Source of the DNA: Gammaproteobacteria bacterium
GTDB lineage: Bacteria; Pseudomonadota; Gammaproteobacteria; Natronospirales; REEB76
Length of the DNA stretch: 26,362 nucleotides
Assembly: GCA_035455665.1 (NCBI GenBank)
Contig: DATIEQ010000126.1
Span: forward strand, 1-26,362
Direction: 5' to 3'
Position numbers and translations under genes: made by a program
The notes under the pieces: model-generated
Databases searched by the model: none
Told to the model about the DNA's origin: nothing
Seen by the model: the letters and a program-made list of their open reading frames with translations, nothing else
Shown here: in pieces, positions 20,520-26,362 of the stretch
Layout of the letters: every line of letters begins with the position of its first letter
How positions within the stretch are numbered: position 1 is the first letter of the stretch

Positions 20520-22442
<1,923 letters not shown>

Positions 22443-22456
22443 CTACCCCGAATCTA

Positions 22457-22585
22457 TGCTCAAAGCTGCTGCGCTTGGCATGACTTCGTTGCGCTTCGGC
22501 TCGGGATCCTCACGTGCTATCGGAGTACGCTCCGGTTCCTCGCCTCGCGCGCCTCATCCTGCCTTCGCTCGCGACGCTTTGATCA
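22457..22585. repeat. About 130-bp intergenic palindromic element (REP/MITE-like)
   Basis: Ends TGCTCAAAGC / GCTTTGATCA (9/10 inverted match). Central CGTGCT-ATCGG-AGTACG hairpin inside CTCACGT...GTACGCTCCGG. Single copy in this window. Confidence 0.45.
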
Positions 22586-22598
22586 GCTTGTAGAAAAA

Positions 22599-23201
22599 TC
22601 AGGCCAGATCGGCGAGCAAAGATTTCTTGAGCGCGTCCGGCACCGGCTTGAGTTCGTGCCGATAGTGGACGTGATCCACACCCGCATCGAGGGCCGCACC
22701 CGCTTTCAGGGATTCCACCATCGTCGGCGTCAACTCGAAGCGCAGGAAGTGCACCGACGAGGTCTTCTCCGCCGTCTCCCGTTCCAGGTCCTCGTCGGCG
22801 ATGGGCTGCACCGGCTCGTGGCCTGCGACCTGAAGCCACACCCGCACCTCGATGCCGATGAGCTGGGCGAGTGCTTTTTTCCGCTCCTCCACGTCGTCGA
22901 ACTCGATGAGCAGGGTCGCCTTCCAGTTCGCGCCGTCCGGGATCAAGGGGTTGTAGGCGTCGAGCTCTTCCTGGATGCCCGCTGCCTCGAAGATGCGCTC
23001 CGTACGCAGCATCTCCTGCACCTGGTACTGCATGGTGAGCCGGTCCTCGAAGAGCAGGGTCAGGTTCGGCCCGAGATGCAGGGTGCGGGCCTTCTTGTGC
23101 TGCATCACCTGGCGGCGGAAATCCTCGCGTTTCTGCGCATATTCCTCCAGGCTCCAGAGGTCTTTGCGCTCGAGTTTCTGCAGGGTCCGGAGAGTCGTCA
23201 T
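22599..23201 (-). CDS. DUF3501 family protein (rubrerythrin-associated)
   Basis: LWSLEEYAQKR, LLFEDRLTMQYQVQEMLRTE, EELDAYNPLIP, ATLLIEF, KTSSVHFLRF. Context with rubrerythrin and Fe-S oxidoreductase. Confidence 0.88.
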   Translation of the reverse strand: MTTLRTLQKLERKDLWSLEEYAQKREDFRRQVMQHKKARTLHLGPNLTLLFEDRLTMQYQVQEMLRTERIFEAAGIQEELDAYNPLIPDGANWKATLLIEFDDVEERKKALAQLIGIEVRVWLQVAGHEPVQPIADEDLERETAEKTSSVHFLRFELTPTMVESLKAGAALDAGVDHVHYRHELKPVPDALKKSLLADLA

Positions 23202-23488
23202 TTATGATCCGTGATGGGTCCGTCTTTGAAAAGATAGTCTTTCAATTCGTGATCGAAGCGCGGGTTGTGGCGACGGATCCATTCCAGCACCATGGAGGCG
23301 TGCTCCATCTCCTCGTCCCGGTTGTGGGCGAGGATGGACTTGAGCTCCTTGTCCTTGCAGGCGGCGACCCGCTGGTTGTACCAGTCCACCGCCTCCAGTT
23401 CCTCCATGAGCGACACCACCGCCCGGTGGAAGTCACGCACCTCGTCGTTCAGTTCCTCGATCGGCTCGTGGTAACCAACGCTGGCCAT
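23198..23488 (-). CDS. Encapsulated-ferritin (EncFtn/Flp)-like protein without a C-terminal targeting peptide
   Basis: YHEP, HRAVVSLMEELEAVDWYNQR, LAHNRDEEMEHASMVLEWIRR, YLFKDGPIT. Ferroxidase residues E30, Y37, E60, H63 and entry residues H55, E59, E62 present. Strong GAGGAG RBS. Confidence 0.88.
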   Translation of the reverse strand: MASVGYHEPIEELNDEVRDFHRAVVSLMEELEAVDWYNQRVAACKDKELKSILAHNRDEEMEHASMVLEWIRRHNPRFDHELKDYLFKDGPITDHK

Positions 23489-23521
23489 GGTTCTCTCCTC
23501 GTATCGAATCCGGTTATTAGT

Positions 23522-24868
23522 CTATAGACCGTAGGCCTTGCGGAGCAGCTCCATGGGAAGTTCAGGTTCCTTCCTGCCCGGAAGACCGTTCTGTATCTGC
23601 TCGGCGGCCATGGGACAGTCGCTGATGTAATGGTCGCAGCCGGACTCCGCTACCTTGTTCATCACCGGCCGGCCGATCTTCATGGACACCTCGTGGTATT
23701 CGCTCTTCACCGCGTAGGTGCCGTTGTGGCCGGAGCAGCGTTCGATGGCCTCGACCGTCGTCTCCGGCACCAGTTCCAGCATCTCTTTGGTCTTGAGTCC
23801 CAGGTTCTGCACCCGCTGATGGCAGGGCACGTGATAGGACACCTTGCCGAGCGGCGTCTTGAAATCGGTCTTCAGCTTGCCGGCCTTGTGGCGCAGCATC
23901 AGGTATTCGAAGGGATCGTAGATGGCGTCCCGGACCTTCCGCACCTCGCGATCGTCCGGGAACATGAGCGGCAGCTCCTGCTTGTACATGAGCACGCAGG
24001 AGGGGATGGGCGCCACGATGTCCCACCCTTCGTCCACGAGCTTCGCGAGCATGGGGATGTTCTCGTCCTTGTTCTTCTTGATGGTGTCGAAATCGCCCAG
24101 TTCCAGCTTCGGCATGCCGCAGCATTTCTCCTGGGGTGTGAGCCGCACCGGCACGCCGTTGTGCTCGAACACCTTCACCAGGTCCTCCGCCATCCCGGGT
24201 TTGTTGTGGTTACCGTAGCAGGTGAGGTAGAGCGCCACTTTGCCGCGAGTGCCTTCCACCGGCTCGATCGGCGATTCGAGCGGCGTATGGTTCTTCAATC
24301 GCTTGCGCGCATTGTCGCTGTGGAATTCCGGCACCACCGCGTCCGGATGTATCCCCAGGGCCTTGTCCAAGATCTTGCGGGCGACGCCGTTCTTGTTCAC
24401 GGCGTTCACCACCTGTACCACGATGGGGATGCCGGCGAACTGCCCGAGCTTGTCGGGTGCGGAGAGCAGTGTGTCCCGCAAGCTCGCACCCTGCTTCTTG
24501 AACTTCACCGCCTTCGCCCGGAGCATCAGGTGCGGGAAGTCCACGTTCCAGGGATGGGGTGGGACGTAGGGGCACTTGGTCATGTAGCACATGTCGCAGA
24601 GGTAGCAGTGGTCCACCACCTCCCAATAGACCTTCTTGTCTACCCCATCCAGTTCCATCGTCGTCGACGCGTCGATGGCGTCGAACAGCGTCGGGAAGGA
24701 GTTGCACAGGCTGAAGCAGCGGCGGCAGCCGTGGCAGATGTCGAACACCCGCTCCAGTTCGGTCGTCAGCGCCTGCTCGTCCCAGAATTCAGGCTTCTGC
24801 CAGTCGATGGGATGGCGGGTCGGGGCCTCGAGCCCCCCTTCGCGCCGCTCGCCTCCGCCTTTGGACAT
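23522..24868 (-). CDS. Rubrerythrin-associated Fe-S oxidoreductase (GlpC/HdrD-like, CCG domains)
   Basis: [47 protein letters not shown]. Start ATG 24868. Confidence 0.9.
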
Positions 24869-24900
24869 GGATCCGGATCCCCTGTGTTCGCGGGTAGACA

Positions 24901-24923
24901 CGGGGGGCGTGTCACACCCCCCG
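24901..24923 (-). other. 10-bp GC stem-loop between rubrerythrin and the oxidoreductase
   Basis: Minus strand CGGGGGGTGT-GAC-ACGCCCCCCG with one G-U pair. No U-tract. Confidence 0.55.
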
Positions 24924-24942
24924 ATAGATCAGCTCTGCTGTC

Positions 24943-25365
24943 TTATTTTCCGAGGCCGTCCAGGGCCTTCTGGAAGCGGTTCGCATGGGAACGCTCCGCC
25001 TTGGCGAGCGTCTCGAACCAGTCCGCGATCTCGCCGAAACCCTCTTCCCGGGCCTTCTTCGCCATGCCGGGGTACATGTCCGTGTACTCGTGGGTCTCGC
25101 CGGCGATGGCTGCCTTCAGGTTCTTATCGGTGGCGCCGATGGGCAGGCCGGTGGCGGGGTCGCCCACCTGCTCCAGGTATTCCAGGTGGCCGTGGGCGTG
25201 GCCGGTCTCGCCTTCCGCAGTGGAACGGAACACGGCGGACACGTCGTTATAGCCCTCCACGTCGGCCTTGGCCGCGAAGTAGAGGTAGCGGCGGTTCGCC
25301 TGGGACTCCCCGGCGAACGCGGCTTTGAGGTTTTCCTCGGTCTTGGTGCCTTTGAGCTTGCTCAT
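24943..25365 (-). CDS. rbr: Rubrerythrin, short aerobic/sulerythrin type (no rubredoxin domain)
   Basis: [48 protein letters not shown] di-iron ligands. No C-terminal CxxC pairs. Confidence 0.94.
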
Positions 25366-25424
25366 ACGTCCTCCAGGTCTGAATAGCGGTGACGAATCTC
25401 GCGATCACCGGCCGGGACCGATGA

Positions 25425-25441
25425 TTTAGACTTAGTCTAAA
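25425..25441. promoter_or_regulatory. Perfect 8-1-8 palindrome, Fur-family (Irr/PerR-like) operator candidate
   Basis: TTTAGACT-T-AGTCTAAA, just downstream of the predicted rbr promoter. Confidence 0.7.
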
Positions 25442-25451
25442 CTGTGTGGAG

Positions 25452-25481
25452 ACTTTAGCGCCTAGCCCAAGGCCCTGTCAA
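25452..25481 (-). promoter_or_regulatory. Sigma70 promoter of the rubrerythrin operon
   Basis: TTGACA(25481-25476)-18-TAAAGT(25457-25452). Confidence 0.6.
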
Positions 25482-25499
25482 CAAGGCATAGGGCCCGGT

Positions 25500-25528
25500 T
25501 TGACCCCACCCCGGGCCCCGTGTACCTT
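25500..25528 (+). promoter_or_regulatory. Sigma70 promoter of xseB-ispA
   Basis: TTGACC-17-TACCTT with TG immediately 5' of the -10. Confidence 0.5.
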
Positions 25529-25552
25529 GCCAGCGCTTTCACGGAGACCGCC

Positions 25553-25810
25553 GTGGCCAAGACCCCCAAATCCGAATCTCTTACCCCGCCCGACTTCGAG
25601 GCTGCGCTCAAGGAACTCGAGAACATCGTCTCCACCCTGGAAAAAGGCGAGCTGAGCCTCGAGACCTCCCTCAAGCACTTCGAGCGCGGCATCGCCCTCA
25701 CCCGCCAGTGCCAGGCCGCCCTGAAGCAGGCCGAACTCAAGGTCGAGAAGCTCGTCGAGAAGAACGGCAAGCAGACCCTGGAGCCCTTCGAGCCCGACGA
25801 GGACGAATGA
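25553..25810 (+). CDS. xseB: Exodeoxyribonuclease VII small subunit
   Basis: [56 protein letters not shown] start after GGAG. Confidence 0.95.
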
Positions 25811-26362
25811 GCCACGGATTCAAGGAGCGGGTGCCGGAGTATGGCGCTCGCATCGAGAAGGTGTTGAACCGCTGGCTGCCGCCGGCGGAGAAGCCCCCAC
25901 AGCGACTGCACCAGGCCATGCGTTACGCCGTCCTCGGCGGCGGCAAGCGTCTCCGTCCCCTCCTCATCTACGCCGCCGGCGAGACGCTCGGTGTCCCGCC
26001 GGAACGCCTCGATGGACCGGCAGCGGCGGTGGAATGCATCCACGCCTATTCCTTGATCCACGACGACCTGCCGGCCATGGACGACGACGACCTGCGCCGC
26101 GGCCGCCCGACCTGCCACAAGGCCTTCGACGAGGCGACGGCGATCCTCGCCGGCGATGCGCTGCAAGTGCTCGCCTTCCTGATCCTGGCGGAGGATCCCG
26201 CCATGGCCGCCGCGCCTGCCGCGCGGGTCGAGATGCTGAAGAGTGTCGCCTTGGCGAGCGGCTCCCTCGGCATGGCCGGAGGCCAGGCCATGGACCTCGC
26301 CGCGGCCGGCAGACCCCTCGGGCTCGCCGAGCTCGAACTCATGCACATCCACAAGACCGGCG
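25807..26362 (+). CDS. ispA: Farnesyl diphosphate synthase / geranyltranstransferase (runs off the right edge)
   Basis: Manual translation: [66 protein letters not shown] overlap with xseB. Confidence 0.96.

Follow-up and report, generated by a model that had tools for sequence, protein, structure and literature searches.

We analyzed a stretch of 26,362 nucleotides from contig DATIEQ010000126.1 (GenBank assembly GCA_035455665.1), hereafter the window, which belongs to the metagenome-assembled genome (MAG) of a gammaproteobacterium of the order Natronospirales (82.8% complete, 360 contigs, assembly of 2.07 Mb). Our subject is an operon of its minus strand in which a short homolog of encapsulated ferritin (EncFtn) lies within an aerobic-type rubrerythrin system. 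A first-pass annotation had proposed the gene order rubrerythrin (rbr), oxidoreductase (hereafter RFO), EncFtn-like protein of 96 amino acids and DUF3501, and family profiles recovered all four genes in this order. The genes and the features of their promoter region are as follows.

24943-25365, minus strand: rbr, 140 amino acids; PF02915, E = 1.5e-30; no rubredoxin domain
23522-24901, minus strand: RFO (Fe-S oxidoreductase), 459 amino acids from the GTG at 24901; two PF02754 (CCG) domains, E = 3e-13
23198-23488, minus strand: EncFtn-like gene (s-FLP class), 96 amino acids; PF22277, E = 2.9e-43
22599-23201, minus strand: DUF3501, 200 amino acids; PF12007, E = 1.2e-73
25452-25481, minus strand: sigma-70-like promoter, TTGACA-18 nt-TAAAGT, 10 of 12 matches
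25425-25441, no strand: 17-bp perfect palindrome TTTAGACTAAGTCTAAA, resembling the Irr-type iron control element (ICE), as read from the sequence

The gaps between rbr, RFO, the EncFtn-like gene and DUF3501 are 41, 33 and -4 bp. At the last junction ATGA contains both the stop of EncFtn and the start of DUF3501 (...CAT AAA TGA), and a GAGGAG ribosome-binding site is placed 6 nt ahead of the EncFtn-like ATG. When both strands of 22300-25700 were scanned, the promoter at 25452-25481 was the sole promoter-like site (shuffled sequence gave a mean of 0.5), and neither an internal promoter nor a minus-strand terminator was found within the operon. Read in this way, rbr, RFO, the s-FLP gene (the third) and DUF3501 appear to form one transcription unit, and with a single promoter for the unit all four proteins would be made together. 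A G/C-rich imperfect hairpin, GGGGGGTGTGACACGCCCCCC, is also present at 24905-24930 of the minus strand, between the rbr stop and the RFO start. It is not followed by a T-run and could determine how much Rbr is made relative to the products of the genes downstream.

The EncFtn-like protein scores above the curated cut-offs of both PF22277 (146 bits, cut-off 27) and TIGR04535 (135.4 bits, cut-off 125). Alignment to R. rubrum EncFtn confirmed the earlier observation that its ferroxidase and entry-site residues are intact: E30, E60, H63 and Y37 align to the ferroxidase residues E32, E62, H65 and Y39, and E29, E32 and W36 to the entry-site residues E31, E34 and W38, whose roles are known from the R. 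rubrum protein (PMC5012862; 10.1101/785121). All of them are invariant across 95 homologs, an invariance that is somewhat built in because part of this set was fetched with peptide patterns containing these residues. Of the solved structures, that of Nitrosomonas europaea NE0167 (PDB 3K6C) is the nearest, with 68 of 93 aligned residues identical (73%, E = 3e-42); this entry holds ten chains, which is consistent with a decameric ring. By homology, the protein should assemble as a ring of five dimers with a di-iron ferroxidase center at each dimer interface, and should oxidize Fe(II) without holding a mineral core.

The junction sequence bears out that the protein ends in GPITDHK, nine residues past a conserved YLF motif; since its stop codon overlaps the DUF3501 ATG, there is no room for a linker or a targeting peptide. 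Likewise, no LG(I/V)GSL-type motif, strict or loose, was detected when the entire window was scanned in all six frames with regular expressions, in agreement with the initial statement that no product of the operon carries such a peptide. A frameshift hiding a tail, which the first-pass annotation had named as a possible objection, was ruled out: the frame that follows encodes DUF3501 at full length (Pfam positions 1-187), the homologs are equally short and the motif is absent. All 95 extracted homologs are 94-103 amino acids long and extend 7-16 residues past YLF, compared with 36 in a shell-linked paralog from another genome, and the C-terminus is not conserved among them. More than 8000 clusters of 52-168 amino acids match the query, the best 120 listed being nearly all 94-105 amino acids in length, and only 143 longer proteins match, nearly all of them represented by one to few sequences each and carrying unrelated extra domains.

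On its sequence, the 96-amino acid protein is a member of the s-FLP or non-encapsulated Flp class (about 95 amino acids, structured domain only, no targeting peptide). This class is described in a 2024 review (PMC11202242), which credits Giessen and Silver (2017) with the first non-encapsulated classing and which leaves open both the function of s-FLPs and whether their 10-residue C-terminus could bind a shell. The proposal that EncFtn was recruited into this operon is thus upheld in that the gene is a real operon member, but the loss of the tail is not local: it extends across a class that had already been named.

Profile searches for family 1 encapsulin (PF04454) found no shell gene in the genome of the window, a check that the first-pass annotation had suggested; this is a blank that is weak evidence because the MAG is incomplete and divided among 360 contigs. 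PF04454 was also absent from all 61 genomes of an order-level set (the window's own and 60 relatives), including 32 with a completeness of 90% or more; G012, a genome of the order that is 100% complete, carries the same four genes without a family 1 shell. No family 2A shell turned up in the window's genome, and family 2B gave weak matches only (profile positions 72-205, at most 36 bits against a cut-off of 400), the like of which occurred in 10 of 14 control genomes.

We then used a class-level sample of 250 genomes of the window's class, evenly drawn and each at least 90% complete, in which EncFtn-like genes are present in 66 genomes, DUF3501 in 106 and family 1 shells in 14. All 14 shell genomes are EncFtn-positive, each with an EncFtn copy adjoining the shell gene. 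A copy unlinked to any shell is present in 58 genomes, 52 of which have no shell at all, so that, contrary to the initial assumption, EncFtn is not as a rule found next to its encapsulin in this class. Six genomes (G228, G231, G272, G276, G348 and G350) have both paralogs, and in four of them it is the copy away from the shell that belongs to the rubrerythrin operon. Of 50 further, diverse s-FLP-carrying genomes taken as a separate set, one has a shell; this genome (Thiogranum, G068) encodes a tailed EncFtn ending in SLGIGSLRGENS directly upstream of a family 1 shell (L104:3084-4269), together with a separate stand-alone short copy (L017).

Analysis of genomic context revealed that the four-gene form recurs. 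Of the 36 genomes of the order that bear EncFtn, 31 have it directly upstream of DUF3501. Our tallies include a few unpublished genomes (G020, G029 and G031 in the order, G061 in the 50-genome set, G147 and G224 in the class), whose removal shifts each count by at most 3; this ratio, for example, becomes 29 of 34. None of our conclusions depends solely on them. Ten such loci of the order were fetched, nine of which show rbr-RFO-EncFtn-DUF3501 and the tenth (L088), at a contig end, RFO-EncFtn-DUF3501. Six further loci of the order, including some of the window's own family, have a plain rbr-RFO-DUF3501. One locus titled Terriglobia (L004) contains an operon 89-91% identical to that of the window; this label is probably due to a binning problem.

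The class sample holds 15 genomes, from at least 13 families, with EncFtn next to DUF3501; several complete genomes of the sample, such as that of L114, have the operon. Thirteen of these loci were fetched: ten have the exact rbr-RFO-EncFtn-DUF3501 order, one at a contig end (L115) has RFO-EncFtn-DUF3501, and in two EncFtn comes after DUF3501, in one of these with an AhpC-type peroxiredoxin between them. The latter arrangement (L117:2273-5913; rbr-RFO-DUF3501-AhpC/TSA peroxiredoxin-s-FLP on one strand, PF00578, E = 4e-39) is another peroxide-defense setting for the short ferritin. In all 19 RFO-EncFtn-DUF3501 loci with rbr in view the four-gene order is identical. The gap between EncFtn and DUF3501 has a median of 12 bp, and the two genes overlap in 6 of 25 related loci. 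In addition, a 100% complete genome of the order that lacks both RFO and DUF3501 has a rubrerythrin-like gene (57% identical) with an s-FLP gene as its next neighbor, about 70 bp downstream (L102:4499-5241).

The order rbr-RFO-DUF3501 was observed in about 50 related loci, and all 20 fetched class loci in which DUF3501 lacks an adjacent EncFtn are of the plain three-gene type, with RFO directly followed by DUF3501. In the window the operon is flanked by a divergent xseB-ispA block (25520-26361) and, downstream, by the topoisomerase IV subunit B gene (20520-22406). The same xseB-ispA(-dxs) and topoisomerase IV flanks surround 22 of 49 related loci from many families, and this shared chromosomal slot points to vertical inheritance of the site. 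Phylogenetic analysis of the s-FLPs (96 columns) placed the four-gene copies in two supported clades, f1 + f7 (SH-aLRT 96) and f9 (SH-aLRT 96), and the DUF3501-adjacent copies of Thiobacillus and Thiomargarita fall outside both. The backbone of the tree is a comb, which would fit either one or several insertions into the operon.

A relationship between s-FLP and DUF3501 was also observed at the level of whole genomes. DUF3501 is present in 45 of the 58 class genomes with a shell-unlinked EncFtn copy (78%) compared with 61 of the 192 others (32%), in only one of the eight class genomes whose sole EncFtn is shell-linked, and in 36 of the 50 genomes of the separate s-FLP set. The s-FLP gene is unlinked to DUF3501 in 30 of the 45 class genomes that have both. 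The contrast of 78% with 32% should be read as a tendency and not as a statistical test because the sampled genomes are related.

A further feature that the four genes would share is their control. The palindrome (25441-25425), which begins 11 bp past the -10 hexamer, reads TTTAGAC-TAA-GTCTAAA, and the pattern TTTAGA-N5-TCTAAA has a single occurrence in the 2.07-Mb assembly, at 25425-25441. Of 46 related operons, 34 have a TTAGA-N5-TCTAA box 43-117 bp upstream of rbr (18 of 22 that bear EncFtn and 16 of 24 three-gene operons). The published consensus of ICE, to which Irr binds, is the alpha-proteobacterial TTTAGAA-N3-TTCTAAA (Rodionov et al. 2006, PMC1698941); in some alpha-proteobacteria the minimal Irr target is a rubrerythrin-like gene (PMC1698941). 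Besides Fur, the genome of the window encodes a second Fur-family protein of 141 amino acids with an HHH motif (L120:1414-1839, minus strand), whose best NCBIfam matches are IrrA and Irr, both below cut-off (119 vs. 150 and 116 vs. 170). Homologs of this Irr-like protein were found in 32 of 33 genomes with the box versus 4 of 12 without it. From this operator and the Irr-like regulator, the operon is predicted to be under an Irr/ICE-type operator at its promoter, and by analogy the four proteins would be co-expressed when iron is sufficient. In the 2006 survey, Irr and ICE were found in no group besides the alpha-proteobacteria (PMC1698941); the pairing of an ICE-like palindrome with an Irr-like regulator occurs here outside that group.

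Three rubrerythrin operons that lack the box have a divergent LysR-type regulator upstream of rbr, as listed below. These genes suggest an alternative, OxyR-like control of the same operon, and recall the OxyR gene that adjoins the operon of Sideroxydans (PMC7852563).

L125:5111-6178, minus strand: divergent LysR-type regulator, PF00126 + PF03466
L132:1557-2573, minus strand: divergent LysR-type regulator, PF00126 + PF03466
L134:1082-2005, minus strand: divergent LysR-type regulator, PF00126 + PF03466

To consider what the short EncFtn might do in this operon, we analyzed its partners. The rbr product is an aerobic-type, rubredoxin-less rubrerythrin (PF02915 only), whose nearest structures are Burkholderia pseudomallei Rbr (4DI0/9ONM, E about 1e-75) and sulerythrin (1J30, E = 1e-53). 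According to a 2025 preprint, the pre-formed site of B. pseudomallei Rbr is promiscuous, taking Fe, Mn and Co, and the operon partners are hypothesized to supply it with electrons (10.1101/2025.06.01.657255). Besides its CCG domains, RFO has a weak match to a 4Fe-4S dicluster domain (PF13534) and a GlpC-like match of 237 bits, below the 278-bit NCBIfam cut-off; no solved structure is related to it by sequence. An alternative start is the ATG at 24868, and homologs align from query residue 7-21 onward.

DUF3501 is homologous to PDB 3FJV of B. pseudomallei (E = 1e-56), and its predicted model (pLDDT 90) superimposes on that structure with a TM score of 0.92 and a Z score of 24. A Foldseek search with the model matched 3FJV alone. 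In a wide search, the non-self fold matches were generic beta-sandwiches with Z scores of at most 7, including the metal-binding proteins CrdA (Z 7.0), Tp34 (Z 5.0) and HftA (Z 4.8); scores in this range are common for unrelated beta-sandwiches according to the search tool, so the fold offers only a weak functional clue. Many His, Glu and Asp residues of DUF3501 are invariant.

Considering these data together, we lean toward the hypothesis that the s-FLP is a free ferroxidase-type accessory of the aerobic rubrerythrin peroxide-defense system. It would clear free Fe(II), which O2 or H2O2 would oxidize, next to a rubrerythrin peroxidase that would itself be supplied with electrons by way of RFO, and DUF3501 would be its most likely direct partner. 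The roles put forward in the first-pass annotation (removal of Fe(II), passage of iron or electrons to Rbr, a complex with DUF3501) are suggestions drawn from the gene context. The s-FLP would be optional, as the three-gene core appears to work without it in many close relatives. We infer the accessory role partly by analogy: in a Blastocatellia genome, a Dps gene lies within an rbr/Fe-S oxidoreductase/DUF3501 operon (PMC7852563), and the s-FLP may fill the job that Dps appears to hold in the same operon of other lineages. This analogy draws on PMC7852563 alone because no Dps was found in the loci that we fetched.

Several observations weigh against this hypothesis. The neighborhood survey of tail-less EncFtn genes suggested at the outset recovered the linkage to DUF3501 and rbr (the 15 class genomes above), but 75 of the 80 closest s-FLP loci stand alone: rbr, RFO and DUF3501 are all absent within 6 kb, as is any other conserved neighbor. 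An ICE-like box was found upstream of none of 77 stand-alone s-FLP genes (250 bp searched), nor was one found upstream of the rubrerythrin-like gene of L102. Insertion into the operon would thus alter the control of the gene. Shared regulation of the stand-alone genes was considered and rejected, given the lack of the box and the lack of enrichment of a Fur box or any 8-mer upstream of them. One genus (g2) has the operon with and without the gene (EncFtn in 8 of 17 genomes, DUF3501 in 14 of 17), which implies an accessory part and not an obligate one.

No genuine fusion of EncFtn with DUF3501, rbr or RFO was found among the 143 longer proteins. Four apparent EncFtn-DUF3501 fusions (P0163, P0176, P0217 and P0218; PF22277 + PF12007) contain out-of-frame stretches and were rejected as read-throughs of neighboring genes in assemblies prone to error; they thus add cases of adjacency. 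In addition, the co-occurrence counts come from related genomes that share an ecology and are not independent trials; the proposed timing of expression is borrowed from alpha-proteobacterial Irr, and the regulator here is only Irr-like, below the NCBIfam cut-offs; and the functions of s-FLP, DUF3501 and RFO are themselves predicted ones.

Some of the same observations may be explained if the s-FLP is an independent, general cytoplasmic Fe(II) oxidase that entered the operon through shared conditions and has no tie to Rbr, RFO or DUF3501. The predominance of stand-alone copies with varying neighbors, the variable presence of the gene inside one genus, the lack of true fusions and the variety of its positions (before DUF3501, after DUF3501, after a peroxiredoxin or after a rubrerythrin-like gene alone) would all fit such a passenger. 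On the other hand, the gene occupies the same RFO/DUF3501 slot in many families, with identical order in the 19 loci that have rbr in view, its junction with DUF3501 is tight and at times overlapping, and DUF3501 is enriched in s-FLP genomes (78% vs. 32%) even where the two are unlinked. We regard this explanation as possible though unlikely. A more doubtful proposal goes further than the accessory hypothesis and has the s-FLP ring and DUF3501 act within the rubrerythrin system as partners devoted to iron handling and independent of a shell. The s-FLP would oxidize Fe(II), perhaps with H2O2, and DUF3501 would receive or pass on the resulting iron, or else anchor the ring to Rbr or RFO, in effect taking the role that the encapsulin shell has for the tailed paralogs. 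If true, this would provide a first function for two orphan families and explain the translational coupling of the pair.

Alternatively, the s-FLP ring might be a chaperone and not a detoxifier, capturing Fe(II) and giving iron to the di-iron site of Rbr or the Fe-S clusters of RFO, perhaps via DUF3501. Correct metallation of Rbr could need such help because the site of the B. pseudomallei protein is promiscuous for Fe, Mn and Co (10.1101/2025.06.01.657255), and both the invariant His, Glu and Asp residues of DUF3501 and the metal-binding proteins among its fold matches might suit a metal carrier. Yet those Z scores are common for unrelated beta-sandwiches, the three-gene system does without s-FLP in most genomes, and EncFtn chemistry ends in Fe(III), whereas insertion normally uses another form of iron; a metallation role therefore seems improbable to us. 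It is very improbable indeed that the s-FLP is still a cargo, with its short C-terminus directing it into an encapsulin that the assembly did not capture or that represents a shell family not yet recognized. The incompleteness of the MAG (82.8%) leaves some space for this explanation, as does the question of shell binding by the 10-residue C-terminus (PMC11202242), but a family 1 shell is absent from all 61 genomes of the order (of which 32 reach 90% completeness or more), 52 of 58 s-FLP class genomes are shell-free and every existing shell adjoins an EncFtn copy, neither a family 2A nor a family 2B shell is present in the genome of the window, and the C-terminus in question is not conserved.

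The accessory hypothesis is of interest since the recurring four-gene form provides a first clue to the role of an orphan s-FLP. Short EncFtn-like proteins are common, being present in about a quarter of the sampled class genomes, four times the number of shell carriers. The RFO-DUF3501 slot, the co-occurrence and the shared Irr/ICE-type control lead to a concrete hypothesis, that of a free ferroxidase working with a peroxidase, and the four proteins involved are small and soluble, two of them already with crystal structures. The aerobic rubrerythrin system ranges from archaea to mitochondria. A limit to this significance is that the s-FLP gene is dispensable in close relatives.

Taken singly, the parts of the operon are already known, since a crystal structure exists for the s-FLP class and both the three-gene rubrerythrin system and the Irr/ICE regulon have been described. 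The combination of four genes is not described in the literature that we searched, where no publication joining "encapsulated ferritin" and DUF3501 was found, DUF3501 is named in only five papers and NE0167 occurs in one review; the initial view that this form is uncharacterized agrees with that search. It is not a new kind of system. Among solved proteins, NE0167 (3K6C) is the most similar to the short EncFtn of the window (95 vs. 96 amino acids, 73% identity, no targeting peptide, same ferroxidase residues), but its C-terminus is of the KPIAHE type instead of GPITDHK, and a Nitrosospira relative (L028) stands alone, whereas the window protein is encoded inside a rubrerythrin operon. With R. 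rubrum encapsulated ferritin (Rru_A0973, PDB 5DA5) the protein shares the fold family, the di-iron center and the entry site. Compared with tailed EncFtn cargo, it is about 40 residues shorter at the C-terminus, lacks a peptide of the SLGIGSL type (the LTVGSL type was likewise not found) and has no shell gene adjoining it or in its lineage. In genomes with both paralogs, the shell-linked EncFtn stays by its shell and the short copy does not.

The other three genes correspond to the system of RBR, RFO and DUF3501 described by Cardenas, Quatrini and Holmes (2016, PMC5114695), with the same families, the same order and a rubredoxin-less Rbr, as the first-pass annotation had recognized in calling them the known aerobic-type rubrerythrin cluster. 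That Rbr is a peroxidase receiving electrons via RFO is a proposal of the literature (PMC5114695; 10.1101/2025.06.01.657255). The window differs in having a fourth gene between RFO and DUF3501; PMC5114695 names no ferritin-like gene, and the legend of its Figure 3 lists only "HYP, hypothetical protein". The Irr/ICE regulon is similar in its operator, TTTAGAC-N3-GTCTAAA differing from the alpha-proteobacterial TTTAGAA-N3-TTCTAAA by one change per arm, but the host of the window is not an alpha-proteobacterium and its regulator falls below the NCBIfam cut-offs. A parallel to the whole arrangement is the Dps operon of a Blastocatellia genome, in which the rubrerythrin triad is likewise joined, in a context of oxidative stress, by a small additional ferroxidase of the ferritin superfamily; a related operon of Sideroxydans lithotrophicus ES-1 adjoins OxyR (PMC7852563). 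There the extra gene encodes Dps, a dodecameric iron-storing cage, and the regulator is OxyR (PMC7852563), whereas in the window the extra protein would, by homology, form an open EncFtn-type ring, and the operator is of the Irr/ICE type.

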